The notes below the pieces were generated by a model that was not told where the DNA came from, did not search any database, and was given only the letters and a program-made list of their open reading frames with translations. DNA of 64,000 bases from Candidatus Nomurabacteria bacterium (GTDB taxonomy: Bacteria > Patescibacteriota > Minisyncoccia > Phycocordibacterales > SBAW01). Made by a program: the position numbers and the translations under genes. This document shows positions 5,770-63,892 of the stretch, piece by piece; position 1 is the first letter of the stretch; the number at the start of each line of letters is the position of its first letter. The stretch is taken from assembly GCA_943356415.1 (NCBI GenBank), contig CALREW010000001.1, forward strand, positions 149,252 to 213,251, in the 5' to 3' direction.

Positions 5770-6618
5770 TCACCAGCGCCAGTTGATGGTGATGGCCCTG
5801 GTCTCGTGGACCTTGGCCAGCATGTAGCCAGCGAAACCGGCGACCAGGCTACCGGTCAGGAAGATGACCGTCGCCGTGGTATTGAAGCCAGGCGTGAAGC
5901 CCGTCACCTTGCCGATGGCGAGGCCGGTCAGCATGCCGAGCGCGGCTCCAGTCACCGCCGCGATGTGGGCATCCGAGACGGTGAACCAGTAGAAAGCCGT
6001 CGCAAACCGCGCAGCGAAGCGCACGATGGCCACGACAGCCGACAGCAGGTACGTCGAGTAGTGGACGACGCCCATCGGCATCCAGATCAGCAGCGCGGGG
6101 ATGCTGAAGTAGAGGAACGCCGAACCAGGAGCGACCCCGATGACATCAAACACGAAGCCGGTGCTGTAGCTCATCTTCTTCTCGAGGCGTTGGGCGCCAT
6201 ACATGGCACCGAGCGCGATGATGCCCGGCAGTCCAGCGAAGACGAAGGCACTCGTGGCCACTTCGCTGAATCCCGCTCCCACCGCGAGCGCTGCATCCAC
6301 TGGCGGAAGAGCCATGGCGGCCCAAAAGAAGAAGCCGTAGATAGCGGTGCCGCTAGCAACGAGATAGACCACAGCCACGATGACAGTGGTCCTCCTCCAG
6401 ACCGCACGGAGGTGCGCCGGATCGGTCGTCGTCGCCCACGCGTGCCGAAGACCGGCAAGGAAGGCTGCGGGGTCGCTCATGAACCACGAAACAGCGAGGC
6501 CGAGGAGCGAGCAGCAGACCAGCGACAAGCCGGTCGTGCCGAGGTACGCGTAGAAGGCGAGAAAGGTCGCCGCTCCGCCAATCGCAGAGAGAGCAACCTG
6601 ACGCTGCAGATGTGTCAC
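5770..6618 (-). CDS. Hypothetical multi-TM membrane protein in a GC-rich (about 62%) island between ftsW and murG
   Basis: Long ORF with multiple hydrophobic helices; opposite-strand ORF 5806..6744 is Arg/Asp-rich low-complexity, typical antisense artefact. Confidence 0.45.
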   Translation of the reverse strand: MTHLQRQVALSAIGGAATFLAFYAYLGTTGLSLVCCSLLGLAVSWFMSDPAAFLAGLRHAWATTTDPAHLRAVWRRTTVIVAVVYLVASGTAIYGFFFWAAMALPPVDAALAVGAGFSEVATSAFVFAGLPGIIALGAMYGAQRLEKKMSYSTGFVFDVIGVAPGSAFLYFSIPALLIWMPMGVVHYSTYLLSAVVAIVRFAARFATAFYWFTVSDAHIAAVTGAALGMLTGLAIGKVTGFTPGFNTTATVIFLTGSLVAGFAGYMLAKVHETRAITINWRW

Positions 6619-9231: not shown

Positions 9232-9258
9232 AGCTCGTAGCGTATAATCAAACAATAA

Positions 9259-10618: not shown

Positions 10619-11119
10619 TTACGCGCTAGAAGCTGCCACCGAAGCCAGACGAGGCCGCTGGCGGATGAGAAGTTTACCCTCCACCACCTCGCCAAAGCCT
10701 GACTCGCGGTACATCTCACCCGCCGCGCCTTCCATGACATGCGCGACGATGGCGAGATGCCGCTTCGCCATGCTGTCAGCCTCGTTGACGAGGCATTCGA
10801 TCAGCGCCGCCCGGAGACGCAGCAACTCTTCGCCGTCCTTGATGGGGGCGAAGAAGAAGTTGGTGATGATCCCGGCGTTGCCGCTCAACAGGTCGAGGTG
10901 AGCGAGCGAGGCCGTCGCCACGATCCGGCCGGTCTTGCCGATCAGGCTACGACGGACCACCGCGATGCGGCAGGATGTCATGACGCGCTGGAGGCCTTCG
11001 AGGGTGACGGACACGCCACCTTTCGAGATGTGGTGGAAATCGTCGACATCAGCTTGCGTCACGCACGAAGGGTGCAGCGTATGGGCTTGGCCATAGACGA
11101 AGCCAGTGTTCTCAATCAT
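10619..11119 (-). CDS. Hypothetical protein (GC-rich island); start placed at MIENTGF, track ORF extends to 11215
   Basis: ORF in about 62% GC DNA downstream of the GNAT gene on the same strand; no recognisable motif. Confidence 0.35.
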   Translation of the reverse strand: MIENTGFVYGQAHTLHPSCVTQADVDDFHHISKGGVSVTLEGLQRVMTSCRIAVVRRSLIGKTGRIVATASLAHLDLLSGNAGIITNFFFAPIKDGEELLRLRAALIECLVNEADSMAKRHLAIVAHVMEGAAGEMYRESGFGEVVEGKLLIRQRPRLASVAASSA

Positions 11120-11283
11120 GGCTCTAACCTCACAAGTTGCCAGTTGGGGAAACAAAGCAGATATTCGAACAGGTACAATCGATAAAACCATACAATAAAC
11201 CTTATATTCCGTCAATATAACGAAAACCGCCAGGGGAGACCCCGGGCGGTTTCGCTACTCACTCGTAGCTGGTGGATGGATAT

Positions 11284-11775
11284 TCACGTGCCGCCCGGGG
11301 TCCAACGATAGGTCCGTGTGTGGCGGCGCTGCACACCCCAGCCCTGCATCGTCGAGCCTTCGTAGAAGGCCTGTGCACCCGTCTTGCTCGAAGTCCAGTC
11401 GACGTGATCGAACTTCTTCTCACGCGCGACTTGGAACAGCTTGCGCATGACACGTTTGCCAAGGCCTCGGCCTTCATGTGCGCGGAGCGTCGAGACGTCA
11501 TTGACCGTCGCGAAGCGCTTGCCGACGTACTCCGCGAGCAAATGCGGCGTCATGATGGCCATCGAGACGATGGTGCCGCCACTGTCGCGCACAACCACCC
11601 AATACGCGCCTTGCGCAAGGACCATCTCATAGTGCCAACGCAGCTGCTCGAGCGACTTCGCAGGCAAGCTTTTGTTGCCAGCCAAATGCTGCATCAAAGC
11701 GGCGATGGCCTGCACATCCTTATCCGTAAGACGCTGTCCTCCGATCAACTCAGCCTCGCTGTAGGCTTCAGCCAT
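11284..11775 (-). CDS. GNAT family N-acetyltransferase (GC-rich island)
   Basis: Acetyl-CoA binding motif RAHEGRGLGKRVMRKL and C-terminal GAQAFYEGSTMQG. Confidence 0.7.
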   Translation of the reverse strand: MAEAYSEAELIGGQRLTDKDVQAIAALMQHLAGNKSLPAKSLEQLRWHYEMVLAQGAYWVVVRDSGGTIVSMAIMTPHLLAEYVGKRFATVNDVSTLRAHEGRGLGKRVMRKLFQVAREKKFDHVDWTSSKTGAQAFYEGSTMQGWGVQRRHTRTYRWTPGGT

Positions 11776-17516: not shown

Positions 17517-17544
17517 ACAAAAGCCCCGTAAGGGGCTTTTGTGT
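17517..17544 (+). terminator. Intrinsic terminator after rpmA: AAAAGCCCC-gtaa-GGGGCTTTT
   Basis: Perfect stem plus T-run. Confidence 0.75.
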
Positions 17545-17547
17545 TAA

Positions 17548-17576
17548 TTGACCATTCTATTTTTCTTTTGTATAAA
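17548..17576 (+). promoter_or_regulatory. Near-consensus sigma70 promoter TTGACC-N17-TATAAA driving the GC-rich ORF at 17610
   Basis: Read directly; RBS GGGAG 7 nt before ATG. Confidence 0.55.
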
Positions 17577-17609
17577 AAGTTTGGACCGAAACACACCAGG
17601 GAGCCAACA

Positions 17610-18407
17610 ATGGCCTCGCATACTCCGTCGTTCTCCTTCGAGGGCTTGTCGGCTTCACAGCTCGCTCAGCTCGCCACGCTCATCTGCAATCGTAAAGACG
17701 CGGCGAACTTCGACGCCATCCTCAGCGAGGTTGGACGTCAGGTTGACCGCTTGGGCGGCCTTCACGACGCACTTCGTCACCTACGGCGCATGGGGAAACC
17801 TATTCCTTCCGCAACGCGCCTGCCGGTGTGGAAAAGGCTGCGACTTGGCACCCGCAGCACCTTCCTGAAATACCGCGCGGATCTCGACGTTCGAGAGTAC
17901 GGCTTCTTCGGCGGCGGGTTAGAGACGTACTACCTGTTTGAGGAACTGCGACGCTTCCGCCCTGCGCAGACGACGCATGAAGTAGACCTTGTTCGACTGT
18001 CCGCAAAGGACCTCGGCTTCATCGGACCGGTGAGCCACACCGACGTCTACGCCATCGCCAGCAAAATGGGACTGGAGCTCTGCACGCCAGAGGTCGGGCC
18101 CGCATTGCGTCGCGTCTACCGGAACCAACCGGTCGGCGAAACGCTCTACGTCGGCATGGAAGCGATCGAAAGACACCGCGCAAGCACGGCGCGTCAGGCT
18201 GATCTCCCACGGAAGTTCGGCTTCGCACTTCACCGCGAGTCGAACTTCAAGGATTACCGCCGGACGCACATGCGGCGGATGAAAAAAGCGCTCCTACTCA
18301 AACCGATCGAGTACGAGCGCTACCCTGAAGAGCCTGGGAATCTACGCTCCCACCCTCTGGTGCAGGGCAACTGGTTCTACGTGTTCGTCCGGCCTCGGCC
18401 GAAATAA
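17610..18407 (+). CDS. Hypothetical protein (GC-rich island, about 60% GC)
   Basis: ATG with GGGAG RBS; GC-rich hairpin (GAGGCCTGCA-tttcgg-TGCAGGCCTC) after stop. Confidence 0.45.
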   Translation: MASHTPSFSFEGLSASQLAQLATLICNRKDAANFDAILSEVGRQVDRLGGLHDALRHLRRMGKPIPSATRLPVWKRLRLGTRSTFLKYRADLDVREYGFFGGGLETYYLFEELRRFRPAQTTHEVDLVRLSAKDLGFIGPVSHTDVYAIASKMGLELCTPEVGPALRRVYRNQPVGETLYVGMEAIERHRASTARQADLPRKFGFALHRESNFKDYRRTHMRRMKKALLLKPIEYERYPEEPGNLRSHPLVQGNWFYVFVRPRPK

Positions 18408-27707: not shown

Positions 27708-27808
27708 GCCGATATCATACCGCGACCCGTAGATGCACCCGACTTGCCATCTTGGATAAATGTTGTGTAGGCTCGAAGTGGATCCCGAAACAACCTGACG
27801 GTGATGTG

Positions 27809-28264
27809 ATGAATCGAGAGATGCTCTACGCGTTTGCGGCCATGCTCCTGAGCGCGCCGCTTCTCATGGCCGTTCCGTTCTTCGAGTACAAGTACGGGAC
27901 GCCCAAAGCCGTGACGACGCTCTCCTGGTTCGCCGGAGAGATTGGCGTCATCGCCATCGTCGCGGTCGCGACGGGCCAGTTGAAGCCCCTGGCGGGCTAC
28001 ACCGGCAACCCTGGCATGTGGCTCGCACTTGTCGGCGGAGCTGTCATCGGAACCGGAGCGCTCTTCTGCATGATGAAGGCATTCGGCGGGGACGAACCGG
28101 CTGCTATCGTCATGACCATCGCAAACGCCAACCCGGCTGTCGCGGTGTTGGGGCTCATGTTCCTCGGCCTCGTCGTCAAGGACTTCCCCACCGGAATCAG
28201 CGACAAGCAGACCTTCGGGGTCTTCCTGTCGATACCGGTCTTCTACCTCCTCGCCTCGAAGTAG
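27809..28264 (+). CDS. Hypothetical 4-TM membrane protein (GC-rich island); start placed at MNREMLY
   Basis: GC about 63%; GGTGA RBS; followed by terminator. Confidence 0.4.
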   Translation: MNREMLYAFAAMLLSAPLLMAVPFFEYKYGTPKAVTTLSWFAGEIGVIAIVAVATGQLKPLAGYTGNPGMWLALVGGAVIGTGALFCMMKAFGGDEPAAIVMTIANANPAVAVLGLMFLGLVVKDFPTGISDKQTFGVFLSIPVFYLLASK

Positions 28265-29686: not shown

Positions 29687-30094
29687 ATGAAACCGAAAAA
29701 AGGCAAGCCCGAGCTTAGGCTCGCGGCGTGCGACGGCAAGTCGCTCGAACGCGGAACCATCCTGGTTCCGAAGAACCTCACGTCCTTTCTTCAACAAGGC
29801 GTGGACCCCATGGTCTTCACGACCATCAACGACTTCGACGACCAGTCGAACGGGGTGTTCTTCGCTACGTTGGGACGGAAGTTCCCGACGTTGCGCTTCA
29901 TGCTGCCGAACATCGAGTGCCCGAACCTCATCATGGCGTTCAGGTACTGCTGTCATCCCAACAACGCGCTGCGTCTCTCTCGTACGCTGCGTGAGCTGGG
30001 CTACCCGGTGATGCTCGTCCACATGACGCCGAGCAGTGTTCCGGAACAGACAGCGCGCATGTTCGCGCCCAATCGGATGAGGATCCGAGCCTGA
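29687..30094 (+). CDS. Hypothetical protein (GC-rich island)
   Basis: GGGGAG RBS, ATG; about 62% GC; terminator hairpin CGCGGCGGCC-tcct-GGCCGCCGCG after stop. Confidence 0.4.
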   Translation: MKPKKGKPELRLAACDGKSLERGTILVPKNLTSFLQQGVDPMVFTTINDFDDQSNGVFFATLGRKFPTLRFMLPNIECPNLIMAFRYCCHPNNALRLSRTLRELGYPVMLVHMTPSSVPEQTARMFAPNRMRIRA

Positions 30095-32935: not shown

Positions 32936-33301
32936 ATGAGTCGACTCGAAAAGTACGTCAAAAGCTGGCATTTGGAGTCAGAGGAGCGGTTTTTGAAAAC
33001 TCCCGTTGGCATTTTTCTCCTCGGTGCCTTTTTGGGCGAACTTTCACCAGACCCCACAGACGCAATCCATTTTTGGCTTCAAGAAAACGTCTTTCTGCAC
33101 CCTACCCTCCCAGCACCGGTGCTGATATTCCTACAGATTTTTGATTGGTACCTTATGAGCGCCTTCTACTTTCTCTTACTCTTGATACTGGCTTATTTCC
33201 TCCATATTAAGAAAGTGAATACCGTAAAGCGCATTACGGTTATCGGAGGATTGCTCGGCGTTGGTGTCGTAATTGGGGTTCTTGTTCGATTTTTTGTGTA
33301 G
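32936..33301 (+). CDS. Hypothetical small membrane protein
   Basis: Three predicted TM helices. Confidence 0.35.
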   Translation: MSRLEKYVKSWHLESEERFLKTPVGIFLLGAFLGELSPDPTDAIHFWLQENVFLHPTLPAPVLIFLQIFDWYLMSAFYFLLLLILAYFLHIKKVNTVKRITVIGGLLGVGVVIGVLVRFFV

Positions 33302-33326
33302 AAAATAAAACACGGTTTTAGAATAT

Positions 33327-33351
33327 ATTGATTACTTGACAAGTAATCAAT
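33327..33351. promoter_or_regulatory. 25-bp perfect palindrome ATTGATTACTTG-A-CAAGTAATCAAT centred on the -35 hexamer (operator-like)
   Basis: 12-bp arms, read directly. Confidence 0.6.
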
Positions 33352-33364
33352 ATATATGTATAAT
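33336..33364 (+). promoter_or_regulatory. Consensus sigma70 promoter TTGACA-N17-TATAAT
   Basis: Exact consensus hexamers, 17-nt spacer; RBS AAGGGGGA before ATG 33400. Confidence 0.7.
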
Positions 33365-33399
33365 GGTTTTATTGCATCAAACGTCCAAGGGGGACATCA

Positions 33400-33759
33400 A
33401 TGCACACGTTCACTCAGCTCTTTTCGTGGCTCTCGACTCTTCCCGGCATGATCGCCGCGATGATCGTCGGGTTCGCAATTCAAATGGCCCCGTTCAGCGC
33501 AGGCCTCGTCGTCTACAAGTGGTCGGTGTTCGGATTCCTGATCCTGCCGCTCATCACCGGCCTGATCTATCCGGCCAGCATCGCCCTCGGCGTTGCGGTC
33601 AGATGGAACCGGCTCGGCGCGAGCGGCCGCTCGCTCCAATGGGAGAAGATCTCTCCGTGGATTAGCGGTTATGGCGCGCCGATGTCAGTGACCCTGACGG
33701 CGCTCTGCATCCTGTGCACGATCTTCATCGGCGCCGGCGCTAACGTCAAGATGATGTAG
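33400..33759 (+). CDS. Hypothetical small membrane protein (GC-rich island, about 62% GC)
   Basis: 3-4 TM helices; driven by consensus promoter; followed by terminator. Confidence 0.45.
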   Translation: MHTFTQLFSWLSTLPGMIAAMIVGFAIQMAPFSAGLVVYKWSVFGFLILPLITGLIYPASIALGVAVRWNRLGASGRSLQWEKISPWISGYGAPMSVTLTALCILCTIFIGAGANVKMM

Positions 33760-33765
33760 GCCTCG

Positions 33766-33812
33766 GGCCTCGACGAAAGAGCTTCGGCTCCCCGTCGAGG
33801 CCCTTTTGTTTT
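33766..33812 (+). terminator. Intrinsic terminator GGCCTCGACG...CGTCGAGGCC plus CTTTTGTTTT
   Basis: 10-bp stem, read directly. Confidence 0.65.
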
Positions 33813-33994
33813 GGAAGTTGAATTTATATGGTCGCAAGTATTTTTCTCATAACGTGACCCGCAGGGGTCTGGGAAACCCACGGTTTTCCCAACCTTCCTC
33901 CACGGAAAACCAAACAGGTTTTCCGACCCTTTCCTACCCCGTGGGTTCATGCAGCCGAAAAAGGCGCCGAGAGGCGCTCAATTTCGTTACTGCA

Positions 33995-34066
33995 TGACCC
34001 CACGGGGAGTCGAACCCCGATTAACGGCTTGAGAAGCCGGCGTCCTAACCATTAGACGATGGGGCC
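33995..34066 (-). tRNA. tRNA-Glu (anticodon CUC), CCA not encoded
   Basis: Manual fold: acceptor GGCCCCA/UGGGGUC, D-stem GUCU/GGAC, anticodon loop UUCUCAA, T-arm CGGGG-UUCGACU-CCCCG. Confidence 0.65.
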
Positions 34067-34134
34067 GTCTAAATGAACACGCGAAACTATACCAGTTTTT
34101 TTACTACCTGACAAAACAGCGTATACTTTCCCCA

Positions 34135-35355: not shown

Positions 35356-35468
35356 TTACAAACGACATTTACCTTTCATTGAAAAACAAACCAGTCGACT
35401 CTCTTTTTAAATAGGTGTACCCTCTCCCATGGAGCCGGTTCGGCTCGAACAACGCAGGAGACACCTTC

Positions 35469-35939
35469 ATGCGGCTGCGCATCGCATATATGGGTACCAT
35501 CGGCGAAGTGCCGAGGGGTGAACCCGACCCGTTCCAGCTTCTCGCTCGGGGCGGCAAGCACTTCGGCCTTATCGCCCCCGACGACGAGCTCCTCGAAGGC
35601 AAGCCTCCGGAGGCGCGCCTCTTCATCTGGAAGTCGGCCTCGATCCTGAGCCGCGTCATGGAAGCGAAGTACGACCTCAACAAGATCGCTGAGGCACTTG
35701 CGGCAGAAGGACACGCAAGCGCCGTGGTCCTGAAGCGGCTTGCTGCCGAAACGACCGCGGCCGCACCTGCTGGCAACATCCACCTCGTGTGGGCTTTGCC
35801 GCCCGGCATGCCGGAGCGCACTGCAGAGGGCCAGAGCGGCCTCATGGACACGATCTACTGCCCCATGTTCAGCGGTCGCTTCACCTTCAGCGACACCCTG
35901 GAGACCACGATCGAACTTCTCGGGGCTCCACGCGCCTGA
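35469..35939 (+). CDS. Hypothetical protein (GC-rich island); start placed at MRLRIAY with AGGAGA RBS
   Basis: About 64% GC; terminator follows. Confidence 0.4.
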   Translation: MRLRIAYMGTIGEVPRGEPDPFQLLARGGKHFGLIAPDDELLEGKPPEARLFIWKSASILSRVMEAKYDLNKIAEALAAEGHASAVVLKRLAAETTAAAPAGNIHLVWALPPGMPERTAEGQSGLMDTIYCPMFSGRFTFSDTLETTIELLGAPRA

Positions 35940-35955
35940 TTGCGGCGACATACGG

Positions 35956-52228: not shown

Positions 52229-52576
52229 TTAACCCTTAACACGTATCAACCCCGCTAACATTTTTTGAACTTCAGAGAGTTTAGTAAGCACGTCCCCTAG
52301 AGTAACGTTTGGATACAACCGGGAGACCAAAATGAGCTGAGTCTCCGCCTCAGCTGCCGAGCCACTTGCGATATGTAAAAAATGTACGAATTCTTTCTTG
52401 GTTCCACGTTTAGCCCCCTCAGCAATATTAGATGGAATTGATACCGCCGCTCTACAAAGCTGCGATGCAAGACCAAAACGTTCGCTCTCAGGCAAATTGC
52501 GAGCTGTAAGATAAATATCTTTCACAACATCCATGGCTTTTCGCCAAACAATCAAATCTTTTACAGAATTCTGCAT
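52229..52576 (-). CDS. Four-helix-bundle protein (23S rRNA intervening-sequence protein family)
   Basis: Characteristic WxxA...SIPSNIAEG motif. Confidence 0.7.
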   Translation of the reverse strand: MQNSVKDLIVWRKAMDVVKDIYLTARNLPESERFGLASQLCRAAVSIPSNIAEGAKRGTKKEFVHFLHIASGSAAEAETQLILVSRLYPNVTLGDVLTKLSEVQKMLAGLIRVKG

Positions 52577-53329: not shown

Positions 53330-54019
53330 CTAATGCGCCTTTGTGCGAAATACCTTCCCCGCTTTTGGATATATGGTAACAAGTGGGTCCTTTGAGGTGT
53401 CGTAGGCTCGTGCCGGAGCAATGCGACGCCCGTAGTAGATGACGCGGTGGGTAAAATGTGGCCATTCTTTCTTTGGGAGCATCTGCATCAAGTCTCGCTC
53501 GATGCGAACTGCATCTTTGTAGTCAGAGAGATCGAAGCGGTGCACAAAACGTATGACATGCGTGTCTACCGTGATACCACCGCTTTCACCATACAGGTCG
53601 CCGAGGATAACGTTGGCCGTCTTACGACCCACGCCAGGTATTTTTATCATCTCCGGAAGCGTGGTCGGCAGCTTCCCCTTCAAATTATTCTTTACGTATT
53701 TTGCTGCAGCAAGAATGTTGCGCGTCTTTGCATTTGCAAAAGTGACTGAGCGTATAAGTTTTGAAAATTCTGCCGGATCAGCCACGCAATAGTCGTTGAG
53801 TGTTTTATAGCGTTTAAAAAGCGCCGGAGTCACCCGGTTTACCATTTTATCCGTGCACTGAGCAGACAACTGTACTGCAACCATAAACTGCCATGGCGTT
53901 TTATAGACCAATTCGGTTATGGCTTCAGGGAACAGTTTCTTTAGAGCCTTATCAAGCTTCAAAATACGAGCCTTTCGCTCGGCTAACTTTTTGCCCGTCA
54001 TGGCTAGCTTGCTGGGCAT
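53330..54019 (-). CDS. nth: Endonuclease III; start placed at MPSKLAMTGKK, as the track ORF extension to 54826 is antisense of the GC-rich gene
   Basis: HhH-GPD motif and C-terminal 4Fe-4S Cys cluster region. Confidence 0.8.
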   Translation of the reverse strand: MPSKLAMTGKKLAERKARILKLDKALKKLFPEAITELVYKTPWQFMVAVQLSAQCTDKMVNRVTPALFKRYKTLNDYCVADPAEFSKLIRSVTFANAKTRNILAAAKYVKNNLKGKLPTTLPEMIKIPGVGRKTANVILGDLYGESGGITVDTHVIRFVHRFDLSDYKDAVRIERDLMQMLPKKEWPHFTHRVIYYGRRIAPARAYDTSKDPLVTIYPKAGKVFRTKAH

Positions 54020-54050
54020 AATGACTAGATAGTACTCCACCTCGGATCTA

Positions 54051-54079
54051 TTGACACAGTGGCAGAGTCGGTCTATAGT
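54051..54079 (+). promoter_or_regulatory. Near-consensus promoter TTGACA-N17-TATAGT driving GC-rich ORF 54158
   Basis: Read directly. Confidence 0.6.
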
Positions 54080-54157
54080 CTTTTTTGGTTCGCTTCTCAG
54101 ACCTGGCAACCGCCAATTTCCCCGAAATAAAGGTCTACCATCGCGAAAGGACGTCCT

Positions 54158-54817
54158 TTGACCAAGACCGCCCCGTTCACTGCCCGTCTCCACGCTGCCA
54201 TGGCTGCTGACGGTTCCACTATCCGCCCGCCCGAGCTGGGCGCCGGCATCAAGACCAAAGGCTACCGCGCCTACGGCATCGTCCCGCACAACCTGCGCGG
54301 CCTGACGGCTTTCCACCATGAGACCCGCACGGCCGTCAACGGCATGCTGGACGAGGCCATGCGCATCAGCGCGGACTGCCTGAAGGGCAACTGCGCCTGC
54401 AAGGCCGGCACCTTCGATGTGGTGAAGTTCGCCGACGAGCTCGCGCTCCTGACCGGCGACCTGACCAAGATCGATGGCATCCTGCTCCCCGAGCTGGCGC
54501 CTGCGCTCAACGGCCTCGATCTGAACTTCACCCAGTACGTCATCGGCGACGACTGGTCCATCAAGGCCCCGGCCGACGCCATGCGCAAGCAGAACCCGCT
54601 CGCGATGTTCAGCGAGATGCTGTTCGGCGATGCTGCTGGTCGATCGCCCTTCGGTCGCGGTCGTCGCGAGCGCAACGACGACATGATGGTCGAGGTCATC
54701 GAAATCGGCGGCATGCGCGGTGGTGGCTCGCCCTTCGGTGGCGCCACCACGCTCCGCGATCTGCTCGGCCGTCTCCGCGGCAGCCGGCGTCACGATCAGT
54801 ACGCCGGCTCGGCGTAG
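54158..54817 (+). CDS. Hypothetical protein (GC-rich island, about 66% GC), TTG start with AAAGGA RBS
   Basis: ORF with Gly/Arg-rich C-terminus; followed by terminator. Confidence 0.4.
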   Translation: MTKTAPFTARLHAAMAADGSTIRPPELGAGIKTKGYRAYGIVPHNLRGLTAFHHETRTAVNGMLDEAMRISADCLKGNCACKAGTFDVVKFADELALLTGDLTKIDGILLPELAPALNGLDLNFTQYVIGDDWSIKAPADAMRKQNPLAMFSEMLFGDAAGRSPFGRGRRERNDDMMVEVIEIGGMRGGGSPFGGATTLRDLLGRLRGSRRHDQYAGSA

Positions 54818-54855
54818 CCTCCTCAACCTCTACTCGGCGCGCCTCGCGCGCCGGT

Positions 54856-60188: not shown

Positions 60189-61034
60189 TCAGTTGCGGAG
60201 CGTGGTCCGCAGGTCCTCCATGTGGGCCAGATAGCCCCTCAGCAGAGCGTCGCCCTGCTGGCCGCGACCGGCGTCCTCGTGACGACGGTCGGCAAACTGG
60301 AGGGTCTCCGGCCGCGTGCCGAGCTTCTTGGCCGCATCCTGCAGGACGACCTTGGCGGCGCCCATGGCGTCCCACTTGGCGCCTTCCGTGCCGTCCTTCG
60401 CGAGGTAGGCCGCATGCCAGAGAGCCTGGCTCGAGCGCAGCCCGAGAACGGCGGTGCGGATGCCGTCCTTGTCGTCGAGGTAGGCCTGGGTCGCGGTGAT
60501 GCGCCGGTCGAGATGCGCCATGAAGCGCGCACGCTCGTCGGAGTTCATCTCGCGCACCGTCTTGATGACGGTGAGCTTGTGCTTGTCGTAGAAGGCCTTG
60601 AGGCCCTCGGGCGTCGACAGCACGGATTTGCCCAACGCCAGGGTGACCTTGCGCCAGTTGTAGATGGCCTCGGAGTCCTCCTTCGTGATCCGCGCCTCCT
60701 CGAGGTCGTAGGAGCGCGAGAAGGTGAAGGACGCGTAGAGGACATTGTAGAACTGTCGGTCCTCGTTGACGGCCAGCAGCGGCTGCAGTTGGTCGCGGTA
60801 GAACGCCTGCCGCTCCATGCCACCGCGATCCTCGTAGACCCGCTGGTCCACCGAGGCCATCACCATGCTCGCCACCGTCTTGTTGGTGACGAAGCTGAGG
60901 GCGACACTCGTGGCGACCTGGTCGGTGACGGCCTTGATCTTGGCGCTGATCGTCGGCGACTGCGCGACCACCACGCTGGTGGCCGCCAGAGTCATCAGCG
61001 CTGCGCCAACGATGGCGCGACCGATATTGTTCAT
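60189..61034 (-). CDS. Hypothetical secreted protein (GC-rich island); start placed at MNNIGRA
   Basis: Signal peptide; GGGAG RBS; alternative long ORFs on both strands are Arg/Gly-rich artefacts. Confidence 0.4.
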   Translation of the reverse strand: MNNIGRAIVGAALMTLAATSVVVAQSPTISAKIKAVTDQVATSVALSFVTNKTVASMVMASVDQRVYEDRGGMERQAFYRDQLQPLLAVNEDRQFYNVLYASFTFSRSYDLEEARITKEDSEAIYNWRKVTLALGKSVLSTPEGLKAFYDKHKLTVIKTVREMNSDERARFMAHLDRRITATQAYLDDKDGIRTAVLGLRSSQALWHAAYLAKDGTEGAKWDAMGAAKVVLQDAAKKLGTRPETLQFADRRHEDAGRGQQGDALLRGYLAHMEDLRTTLRN

Positions 61035-61109
61035 AGACTTTTGCTCCCGCCGGCAGTGCCGGTCTTCTAGACATGGAAGTGCCAAACAACAACTCATAGC
61101 ACCTGTAAC

Positions 61110-62623: not shown

Positions 62624-63097
62624 ATGCGCACGCGAAACGTAAATATCCTGGCCTGGGGGCTTGGTCTGATCGTGGGTGGCATCGTCCTCTACGCCGGACT
62701 CGCGGGCTTCGGCTTCTTCGATGGGAGCTGGGCGCCAAGCCGAGCGTCGGCTAACAAGAACCCCATCGACGAGGTTTACCACCTCGTCGTCGCACAGCAA
62801 TTGCCGCCGGGCCCTGGGCCAAACACGACCCGCATCGTCAGCGCCAGCGGGACGTACGTACTTGGTGCTACGGCACCCAATACGTTCAGCGTCTCGCGTG
62901 AGGGGTCACCGAGGCTCGGTGTCGTGATGCAGAAGCTGGGCGACGTCTGGAATTCGACCAGCGTTACCGGTTTTGAAACCACGCTGAACCGGGATTCCGG
63001 GCGAGCGCGTATCCTCGACCCGCAGAAGCTGCAGGATTTCATCAACACGGCAATCAACGCCGCGTTGGCCTGCAGTCACAGGAAGAACATGTGCTGA
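62624..63097 (+). CDS. Hypothetical secreted protein (GC-rich), paralog of 63267..63791
   Basis: N-terminal TM/signal; C-terminus FINTAINAALACSHRKNMC similar to FLMKAFDAARSCGYNKTQC. Confidence 0.4.
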   Translation: MRTRNVNILAWGLGLIVGGIVLYAGLAGFGFFDGSWAPSRASANKNPIDEVYHLVVAQQLPPGPGPNTTRIVSASGTYVLGATAPNTFSVSREGSPRLGVVMQKLGDVWNSTSVTGFETTLNRDSGRARILDPQKLQDFINTAINAALACSHRKNMC

Positions 63098-63146
63098 CCT
63101 CGGTCACCACGCAGCGAGCGCCCCTCACCGGGCGCTCGTTTTGCGT
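63095..63146 (+). terminator. Terminator hairpin GAGCGCCC-ctcacc-GGGCGCTC plus GTTTTGCGT; copy 1 of a near-identical repeat
   Basis: Almost identical to 63789..63842. Confidence 0.6.
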
Positions 63147-63182: not shown

Positions 63183-63212
63183 TTGACAGATAGTACTTTT
63201 TCGTATCATAAT
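63183..63212 (+). promoter_or_regulatory. Near-consensus promoter TTGACA-N17-TCATAAT
   Basis: Read directly. Confidence 0.55.
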
Positions 63213-63266
63213 ACTTACGTACGCTCGTTGAGTTCCCTTTCCTCAGTTCAATCCTGGAGACACGCC

Positions 63267-63791
63267 ATGTCGTGGTTTATCCGCCTCTTCGTCCCAGTCC
63301 TTCTCCTTCTCGCGCTCGGCGCGTGCGACAACGGCAACAAGAAGGCCAAATCCCCGCCTCCCCCGGCACCGACGGAGCTCGACCTGGCAGCCAACCAGGT
63401 CCTGGACCTCTTCCTCTCGGGCAAGCTGCCCATGGGGAATGATGCCTTCGGCGCCCCTGCGGCCGTCTTCGGCAAGCACACGGTGCCGGCGGTGCCCTCG
63501 ATTAACGCGCCGGCGTACACCATGGAGTACACCATCACGATGGACTCCATCGATAAGTGGACGAGCCTGAAGATCGCTGTCCGCTACAGCAATGGCGCGG
63601 GCAGCTACGTCGGCATCTCTCGGCTTAACACCGAGACGAAGTGGGCCATCAATGGTGTCGGCAACATGCCGTGGACATCCGGGGCCAACTGGAACGAGCC
63701 GGGCAGCGTGGACTATCCACGCTACAAAGAATTCCTGATGAAGGCCTTCGACGCCGCCCGCTCCTGCGGCTACAACAAGACCCAGTGCTGA
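63267..63791 (+). CDS. Hypothetical lipoprotein (GC-rich), lipobox LLALGAC
   Basis: Signal peptide with LALGAC, Pro-rich linker; paralogous C-terminus. Confidence 0.45.
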   Translation: MSWFIRLFVPVLLLLALGACDNGNKKAKSPPPPAPTELDLAANQVLDLFLSGKLPMGNDAFGAPAAVFGKHTVPAVPSINAPAYTMEYTITMDSIDKWTSLKIAVRYSNGAGSYVGISRLNTETKWAINGVGNMPWTSGANWNEPGSVDYPRYKEFLMKAFDAARSCGYNKTQC

Positions 63792-63842
63792 CCTCGGTCA
63801 CCACGCAGCGGGCGCCCCTCACCGGGCGCTCGTTTTGCGTTT
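63789..63842 (+). terminator. Copy 2 of the conserved 3' end plus terminator repeat
   Basis: One mismatch versus 63095..63146. Confidence 0.6.
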
Positions 63843-63892
63843 AGATATGCACCGTTCGACAAACATGGCTGTATTCGTATAATGTGGCGGCT

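Follow-up and report, generated by a model that had tools for sequence, protein, structure and literature searches.

An exact consensus promoter in the window, by which we mean the whole 64-kb stretch of DNA analysed here, carries a perfect 33-bp palindrome over its -35 box and heads a compact, GC-rich unit that encodes an orphan membrane protein of 119 aa. This unit would be a horizontally acquired, self-contained expression cassette in a Patescibacteria/Parcubacteria-type chromosome, with the palindrome as its control site. The interpretation that we favour, if only tentatively, is that the cassette is foreign and moron-like and that a symmetric repressor gates its promoter by occupying the -35 box. 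The original prediction for this locus had rightly singled out the promoter and the palindrome but missed the wider context, in which the unit is one foreign, lineage-specific cassette among about a dozen.

A perfect palindrome over the -35 box of a consensus promoter

The promoter and the palindrome consist of the following elements.

33323..33355 (no strand): perfect palindrome and candidate operator, ATATATTGATTACTTG-A-CAAGTAATCAATATAT, with 16-bp arms and the centre A at 33339
33336..33341 (+): -35 hexamer TTGACA, with the palindrome centre inside the hexamer
33359..33364 (+): -10 hexamer TATAAT, after a 17-bp spacer, a 12/12 match together with the -35 hexamer

As predicted, an exact TTGACA-N17-TATAAT promoter overlapped by a palindrome occupies 33336-33341 and 33359-33364, and transcription from it would start near 33371. 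It is the only 12/12 TTGACA-N17-TATAAT site with a 17-bp spacer in the window, and 0.005 exact sites are expected per shuffled window. The palindrome had been described as the 25-bp ATTGATTACTTG-A-CAAGTAATCAAT, which is indeed present at 33327-33351 but is too short, as the symmetry runs 4 bases further on each side. The two arms of 16 bp are 100% complementary around a 1-nt centre, 33 bp in total. In 30 shuffles, the longest arm at a gap of 0-1 was 0-13 bp and usually 8-9 bp. Both the 33-bp palindrome and the 12/12 promoter are far beyond what chance would produce.

The stretch 33323-33355 has the dyad symmetry that characterizes the operator of a dimeric repressor. By position, its centre falls at about -33, within TTGACA, and the dyad overlaps the core promoter. 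Since the dyad lies 5' of the predicted transcription start, it would act as DNA and not as part of the cassette mRNA. A divergent promoter on the minus strand was considered and discarded; the dyad holds a weak 9/12 site in that direction, with nothing there to transcribe.

The remaining long palindromes of the window are all GC-rich terminator hairpins with A/T flanks. The palindrome at the promoter is 76% A+T, with G/C at 4 of its 16 stem pairs, and was rejected as a terminator-type element, being unlike the window's terminators with their GC-rich stems and T runs directly 3'. An Rfam family was rejected as well, the lone match to the palindrome being a meaningless miRNA hit; at the gathering and E-value thresholds, tRNA was the sole meaningful Rfam match. 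The palindrome is identical in every strain contig available, a conservation that is uninformative in itself, the genomes that carry it being strains merely ~2% apart. At a strain difference of ~2.3%, the 300 bp of 33300-33599 show no substitutions, which is only mildly unusual.

A compact cassette for an orphan membrane protein

Downstream of the promoter, the following features make up the rest of the unit.

33302..33850 (+): extent of the cassette, ~550 bp, missing in the closest distinct relative (L031) and marked by a step in composition; borders approximate
33387..33393 (+): Shine-Dalgarno-like AAGGGGG, 6 nt 5' of the ATG
33400..33759 (+): gene for the 119-aa orphan membrane protein, GC1/2/3 = 0.50/0.48/0.84
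33765..33812 (+): intrinsic terminator, GGGCCTCGACG...CGTCGAGGCCC then TTTTGTTTT

Within ~550 bp, the unit thus combines a promoter, a 29-nt leader with a Shine-Dalgarno (SD) site, the 119-aa ORF and a GC-rich terminator, whose 11-bp stem at 33765-33803 is followed by TTTTGTTTT. A single gene is therefore flanked by a promoter and a factor-independent terminator of its own, both as predicted from sequence, which is one of the hallmarks of morons. The same AAGGGGG precedes the cassette gene at 62624. The expectation of a GC-rich 119-aa membrane protein gene near tRNA-Glu held, with the gene at 33400-33759 and tRNA-Glu(CTC) at 33995-34066(-). The ORF is a genuine coding sequence, its GC3 of 0.84 standing far above its GC1 of 0.50 and GC2 of 0.48. 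In one strain allele, found in L001, L027 and L030, gene callers placed an earlier in-frame ATG or a minus-strand ORF. In this allele, an indel of 1 nt that falls after the -10 box and before the SD site shifts the upstream frame, which shows that this stretch is non-coding and that the ATG at 33400 is the start.

The 119-aa protein is hydrophobic, and AF2 models it as three long helices with low confidence (pLDDT 58.9), a model that was judged too poor for a fold search. The protein's only homolog among 5.8 billion clustered sequences is 91% identical and is encoded at the same locus in another strain. Exhaustive HMMER searching of 1.84 billion representative proteins returned nothing beyond this allele, apart from three weak matches, all to giant proteins. 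The protein has no match in Pfam, PHROGs or PADLOC. In addition, blastn of the cassette DNA found no match in vector, plasmid or phage collections, and such a source for the 'synthetic-looking' cassette was rejected.

The 3' part of the gene varies between strains. Within the 128 bp of 33608-33735 (codons 70-111), 24 positions (19%) distinguish the two strain alleles, with 11 non-synonymous and 7 synonymous codons, while the 308 bp before this segment carry no substitutions and the genome-wide difference is ~2.3%. The pattern suggests that the segment was acquired by recombination from an allele that had diverged further. Targeting by a diversity-generating retroelement (DGR) was rejected for the variable 3' half, as no repeat of 33560-33760 was found in the window and no reverse transcriptase in the Pfam scans. 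Elsewhere in the window, 52229-52576(-) is a stand-alone gene for a 23S-rRNA-IVP/bAvd-like four-helix protein, located between RRF and a HAD hydrolase with no adjacent reverse transcriptase.

The cassette as extra DNA beside tRNA-Glu

The landmarks on either side of the cassette are listed below.

32936..33301 (+): conserved Parcubacteria-type gene for a 121-aa membrane protein, native and leaderless, left landmark
33853..33868 (+): degenerate direct copy of the tRNA-Glu 3' end, TGACCCGCAGGGGTC
33995..34066 (-): tRNA-Glu(CTC), right-hand landmark

The wider neighbourhood contains thrC, truB, a shikimate-kinase-like gene, murF, a PBP gene and mraZ. The 121-aa protein has more than 200 homologs, and those with a named source belong to Parcubacteria, Minisyncoccia or Yanofskybacteria. 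Every contig with an identical 121-aa protein has the same cassette, with identical palindrome and promoter. Apparent strain variation in cassette content (L027, L029 and L030) was dismissed as gene-caller strand errors on identical or near-identical DNA.

In L031, whose 121-aa ortholog is 81% identical, 15 nt that copy the 3' end of tRNA-Glu exactly come directly after the stop codon of the 121-aa gene, followed by ~190 nt and then tRNA-Glu on the minus strand, and the interval between the 121-aa gene and tRNA-Glu has no promoter, palindrome or GC-rich ORF. This layout, together with the degenerate copy at 33853-33868, indicates that the ~550 bp from 33302 to ~33850 are extra DNA, a conclusion drawn from one comparator with 81% protein identity and a different tRNA-Glu isoacceptor. 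Absence from the same position in relatives, as is typical of morons, is accordingly seen in this one comparator with partial synteny; the farther homologs of the 121-aa gene lie in other neighbourhoods, which leaves L031 as the only one informative for synteny. The 9-mer CACGGTTTT occurs at both 33311 and 33877 and brackets the cassette.

Several secondary structures were observed around the tRNA gene. The 3' end and trailer of tRNA-Glu are complementary to a segment ~35 nt downstream, across a small terminator hairpin (33937-33954 versus 33990-34007). The same pairing is found in L031 (~705-716 versus 752-763) despite a different trailer sequence, which amounts to covariation, and it may be a conserved precursor-tRNA structure. 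Moreover, three neighbouring hairpins lie at 33853-33925, between the cassette terminator and tRNA-Glu (GACCC..GGGTC, TGGGAAA..TTTCCCA and CGGAAAACC..GGTTTTCCG). The last two are related through the direct repeat GGTTTTCC(C/G)A(A/C)CCTT, 35 nt apart. None of the three has an Rfam match.

Sister cassettes of foreign composition

The native genes have a GC3 of 0.39-0.61, mostly no higher than 0.55, compared with 0.84 for the 119-aa ORF. GC content is 0.60-0.64 in the cassette versus 0.44-0.47 in its flanks, and the flanking native genes have a GC3 of 0.39-0.55, so that the unit also deviates from its surroundings in the way that morons do. The high GC3 is not an effect of expression, because the genes for L9, RRF and GreA, which are probably highly expressed, reach only 0.41-0.45. 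About a dozen GC3-rich ORFs (GC3 0.70-0.88) occur in the window as follows.

5770-6618 (-): GC3-rich ORF
10619-11215 (-): GC3-rich ORF
11284-11775 (-): GC3-rich ORF, GNAT
17541-18407 (+): GC3-rich ORF
27752-28264 (+): GC3-rich ORF
29687-30094 (+): GC3-rich ORF
33400-33759 (+): GC3-rich ORF, the gene headed by the palindrome
35415-35939 (+): GC3-rich ORF
54158-54817 (+): GC3-rich ORF
60189-61097 (-): GC3-rich ORF, with a single homolog at 67% identity
62624-63097 (+): GC3-rich ORF
63183-63791 (+): GC3-rich ORF

Besides 33400-33759, 10 of the 11 have no Pfam match, and the Pfam search of the sister cassettes gave a GNAT domain and a weak glycine zipper only. Nine of the sister proteins were searched in PHROGs and PADLOC, with nothing beyond a marginal SduA match. 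Several of the sister proteins appear, as judged by eye, to be membrane or signal-peptide proteins.

In most sister cassettes, the gene is preceded by a sigma-70-like promoter of its own and a leader with an SD site, and followed by a strong GC-rich terminator. Six promoter-like sites in the window score at least 11/12, and five of these, all with a perfect TTGACA, stand directly 5' of GC3-rich ORFs (33336, 61139(-), 54051, 62548 and 63183); the sixth, TCGACA-16-TATAAT at 63856, is at the window edge, 5' of another ORF. No long dyad was found at the other cassette promoters of the window. The native genes are built differently. In ~22 of the 34, a TAnAnT -10 box is placed 6-8 nt 5' of the start codon (for example 34122-34134 and 9243-9258), a spacing which indicates that they are leaderless. 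Their -35 scores are 1-5/6, with none above 5/6 among the 34 genes, and no SD site is visible in 38 native upstream regions. Judged from these sequence signals, the GC3-rich cassettes appear to follow a different expression grammar from that of the native genes.

Two of the cassettes resemble each other. The near-identical terminator segments CCTCGGTCACCACGCAGCG(A/G)GCGCCCCTCACCGGGCGCTCGTTTTGCGT at 63098-63146 and 63792-63840 end 62624-63097 and 63183-63791, respectively, and the proteins of both have a terminal Cys, which suggests that the two are tandem paralogous cassettes. In the GC-rich islands, the publicly available gene calls frequently choose the wrong strand or run too far. Judged by its GC3, 35415-35939(+) is the coding ORF, and not the called 191-aa minus-strand ORF at 35376-35951(-); similarly, the '498-aa' HhH-GPD ORF at 53330-54826(-) is over-extended through an island that really encodes 54158-54817(+).

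Search for a regulator and for further sites

The expectation that no regulator gene is adjacent to the cassette was confirmed, the neighbours having no Pfam DNA-binding domain of the HTH, RHH or other type. MraZ was the only regulator-type protein among ~44 ORFs scanned across the 64-kb window and the gene calls for 36-43 kb, a domain-based result from which a regulator could be concealed among the orphan proteins.

A regulon defined by further copies of the half-site had also been anticipated. The 64-kb window contains no second copy, either of the half-site with up to 2 mismatches or by best-match scoring of the 25-mer, for which the best other match (16/25) equals the shuffle maxima. A further 8.6 kb of the same genome likewise had no second palindrome site, which brings the DNA covered to ~73 kb in all. 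The reading of the palindrome as a dimeric-repressor operator therefore stands as far as geometry goes, with the dyad over the -35 box, but the regulon that it predicted found no support in the ~73 kb reached.

The 19-nt core GATTACTTGNCAAGTAATC had 11 matches among the GTDB genomes and 12 among the JGI metagenomes, with none in viral contigs. By our own estimate, ~9 matches are expected by chance in GTDB, and the core thus occurs at chance frequency. The matches come from unrelated organisms, none of them Parcubacteria, and are often inside coding sequence. As the GTDB and JGI searches did not return this locus itself, they are uninformative on its own regulon. A literature search for the core gave only a coincidental Sulfolobus oligonucleotide.

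Proposed control of the cassette and alternative explanations

Regulation of this promoter can only be negative, because it is already a consensus promoter and needs no activator. We infer that a protein binds the dyad. It would be a symmetric DNA-binding protein positioned on the 33-bp dyad at about -33, as a dimer or, given the 16-bp arms, as a pair of dimers. When bound, it would keep sigma region 4 off the -35 box and the gene would be off; when the repressor is lost, the membrane protein would be strongly expressed. Such a repressor would act in trans, being encoded elsewhere than beside the cassette, and it may share the mobile gene pool. The cassette promoter presumably fires in this organism, and our guess for the product is a surface or exclusion-type accessory protein. 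Two further observations count against an operator. The 33-bp site is long for a single dimer, and native -35 boxes are poor, a consensus TTGACA being atypical of the organism's own promoters.

A first alternative is that the dyad is a relic, the repressor having been left behind in the donor (a phage, a plasmid or another genome), so that nothing binds the site here and the promoter is constitutive and strong. The missing regulator nearby and the lack of a second site in ~73 kb would fit this, as would the nature of the cassette as a recent, species-level acquisition with an orphan product. Moreover, other GC3-rich cassettes have strong promoters and no long palindrome, which suggests that a palindrome is dispensable for cassette expression. 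However, the 16/16 symmetry is undecayed, which points to a very recent arrival or to selection, and the dyad is identical in every strain, even where the ORF has diverged by 19% over 128 bp. Constitutive high output of a hydrophobic protein would also probably be costly in a tiny cell. We consider a relic operator rather unlikely.

Control might instead be protein-independent. If the palindrome extruded as a cruciform under negative supercoiling, the -35 box would be destroyed and the promoter would become sensitive to supercoiling. The repeat is perfect and 76% A+T with a 1-nt centre, the predicted single-stranded DNA hairpin has -11.1 kcal/mol per strand (z -6.5) and the -35 box would be at the hairpin tip; a cruciform would also account for both the missing regulator and the missing second site. 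Cruciform-gated synthetic E. coli promoters were reportedly described by Horwitz and Loeb in 1988. However, natural examples of such control are rare, and 33 bp is near the lower limit for cruciform extrusion in vivo. A cruciform switch is, in our assessment, improbable.

The palindrome could also function as RNA. A transcript of the 121-aa gene would read into it, and the resulting hairpin would terminate or stabilize that mRNA and insulate the cassette. Indeed, the palindrome begins 22 nt past the 121-aa stop codon with no other terminator there, folding prediction gives -15.8 kcal/mol for the RNA hairpin and the orthologous gene in L031 also has an AT-rich hairpin 3' of it (AAAACTTTTTcgtcAAAAAGTTTT). 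The palindrome nevertheless lacks the GC-rich stem directly before a U tract that defines an intrinsic terminator; its stem is AU-rich with only 4 of 16 G/C pairs, and no U tract abuts it, the nearest UUUUAUU beginning 12 nt later. In addition, it was not reported by the terminator scan, whereas the convincing terminators here all have a GC-rich stem and a direct T run. An RNA hairpin would also leave the centring of the dyad on a consensus -35 box unexplained, and we give it a slim chance.

Least probable is that the dyad is the target or scar of a recombinase that delivered the cassette beside tRNA-Glu. It does lie close to where the inserted segment begins on the left (~20 bp), in a region flanked by tRNA 3'-end copies and with CACGGTTTT bracketing the cassette. 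However, neither an integrase nor a transposase gene was seen in Pfam scans and gene calls covering most ORFs of the window, no dyad of this kind accompanies the other cassettes and the dyad itself lacks a central spacer like those of dif or att sites. The 9-mer could also be a chance repeat (~1% for two 50-bp zones by a rough hand estimate that leaves multiple looks uncounted).

Repression through the dyad, the reading that we favour, may be part of a larger picture. The genome might be peppered with chromosomal 'morons', ~12 in these 64 kb, each with a complete foreign expression grammar (TTGACA/TATAAT, SD leader and GC-rich terminator). Their source would be a high-GC gene pool that has escaped sampling, such as the presumed episymbiont's host or the mobile elements of that host. 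In this picture, a repressor acting in trans, and possibly foreign itself, would use the dyad to switch one of them. We regard this extension as possible but doubtful.

As far as we are aware, experimental knowledge of transcription control is scant for the candidate phyla radiation (CPR), and the locus offers a clean candidate repressor-operator pair in a CPR bacterium. The context weighs more than the site itself, as two expression styles seem to co-exist, leaderless native genes with only a -10 box versus imported cassettes in which a canonical promoter is combined with an SD site. Each of a dozen orphan genes, of which several seem to encode surface proteins, forms a unit of its own. Provided that they are expressed, the cassettes would be promising candidates for a role in host interaction or exclusion, and they would mark gene flow from some high-GC source into CPR genomes.

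Comparison with known systems

Repressor operators over the -35 box of strong promoters include phage immunity operators and the IR1 site of QacR (TetR family), which is bound by two dimers, and LexA boxes are found at genes for small membrane toxins that the SOS response induces, tisB among them. The site described here is like these operators in having a (near-)perfect dyad over the core elements of an activator-independent promoter and in placing a small hydrophobic protein under control. It differs from them in that no cognate repressor, autoregulated neighbour or second site was found here and in its perfect length of 33 bp, which is unusually long. We know of no operator consensus that its half-site matches.

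The locus also shares features with tRNA-linked genomic islets, namely foreign DNA beside a tRNA gene and, close by, partial copies of that tRNA's 3' end. In contrast to such islets, the cassette has no integrase, is only ~550 bp long and lies outside the interval between the tRNA and its direct partial copy.

Phage morons are described by their own promoter and terminator and a deviant GC content (PMC3594210). Like the morons of HK97/HK022 type (PMC3594210), the unit adds one gene, which has a promoter and a factor-independent terminator of its own, differs from its flanks in GC content and is absent from related genomes at the same position; its product is a small membrane protein, comparable to gp15 of HK97. 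Unlike them, the cassette lies among housekeeping genes (thrC, truB, tRNA-Glu, murF and the mraZ cluster) and not in a prophage, and about a dozen such units are found in 64 kb. No phage genes were found nearby, no match in PHROGs and none in the phage collection, which places the cassette outside any recognized phage or prophage. The unit is thus moron-like but not a moron in the strict sense. Taken together, the element can be described as an operator-type dyad on a moron-like cassette, an assignment that is plausible in geometry and in which both component kinds are already known.
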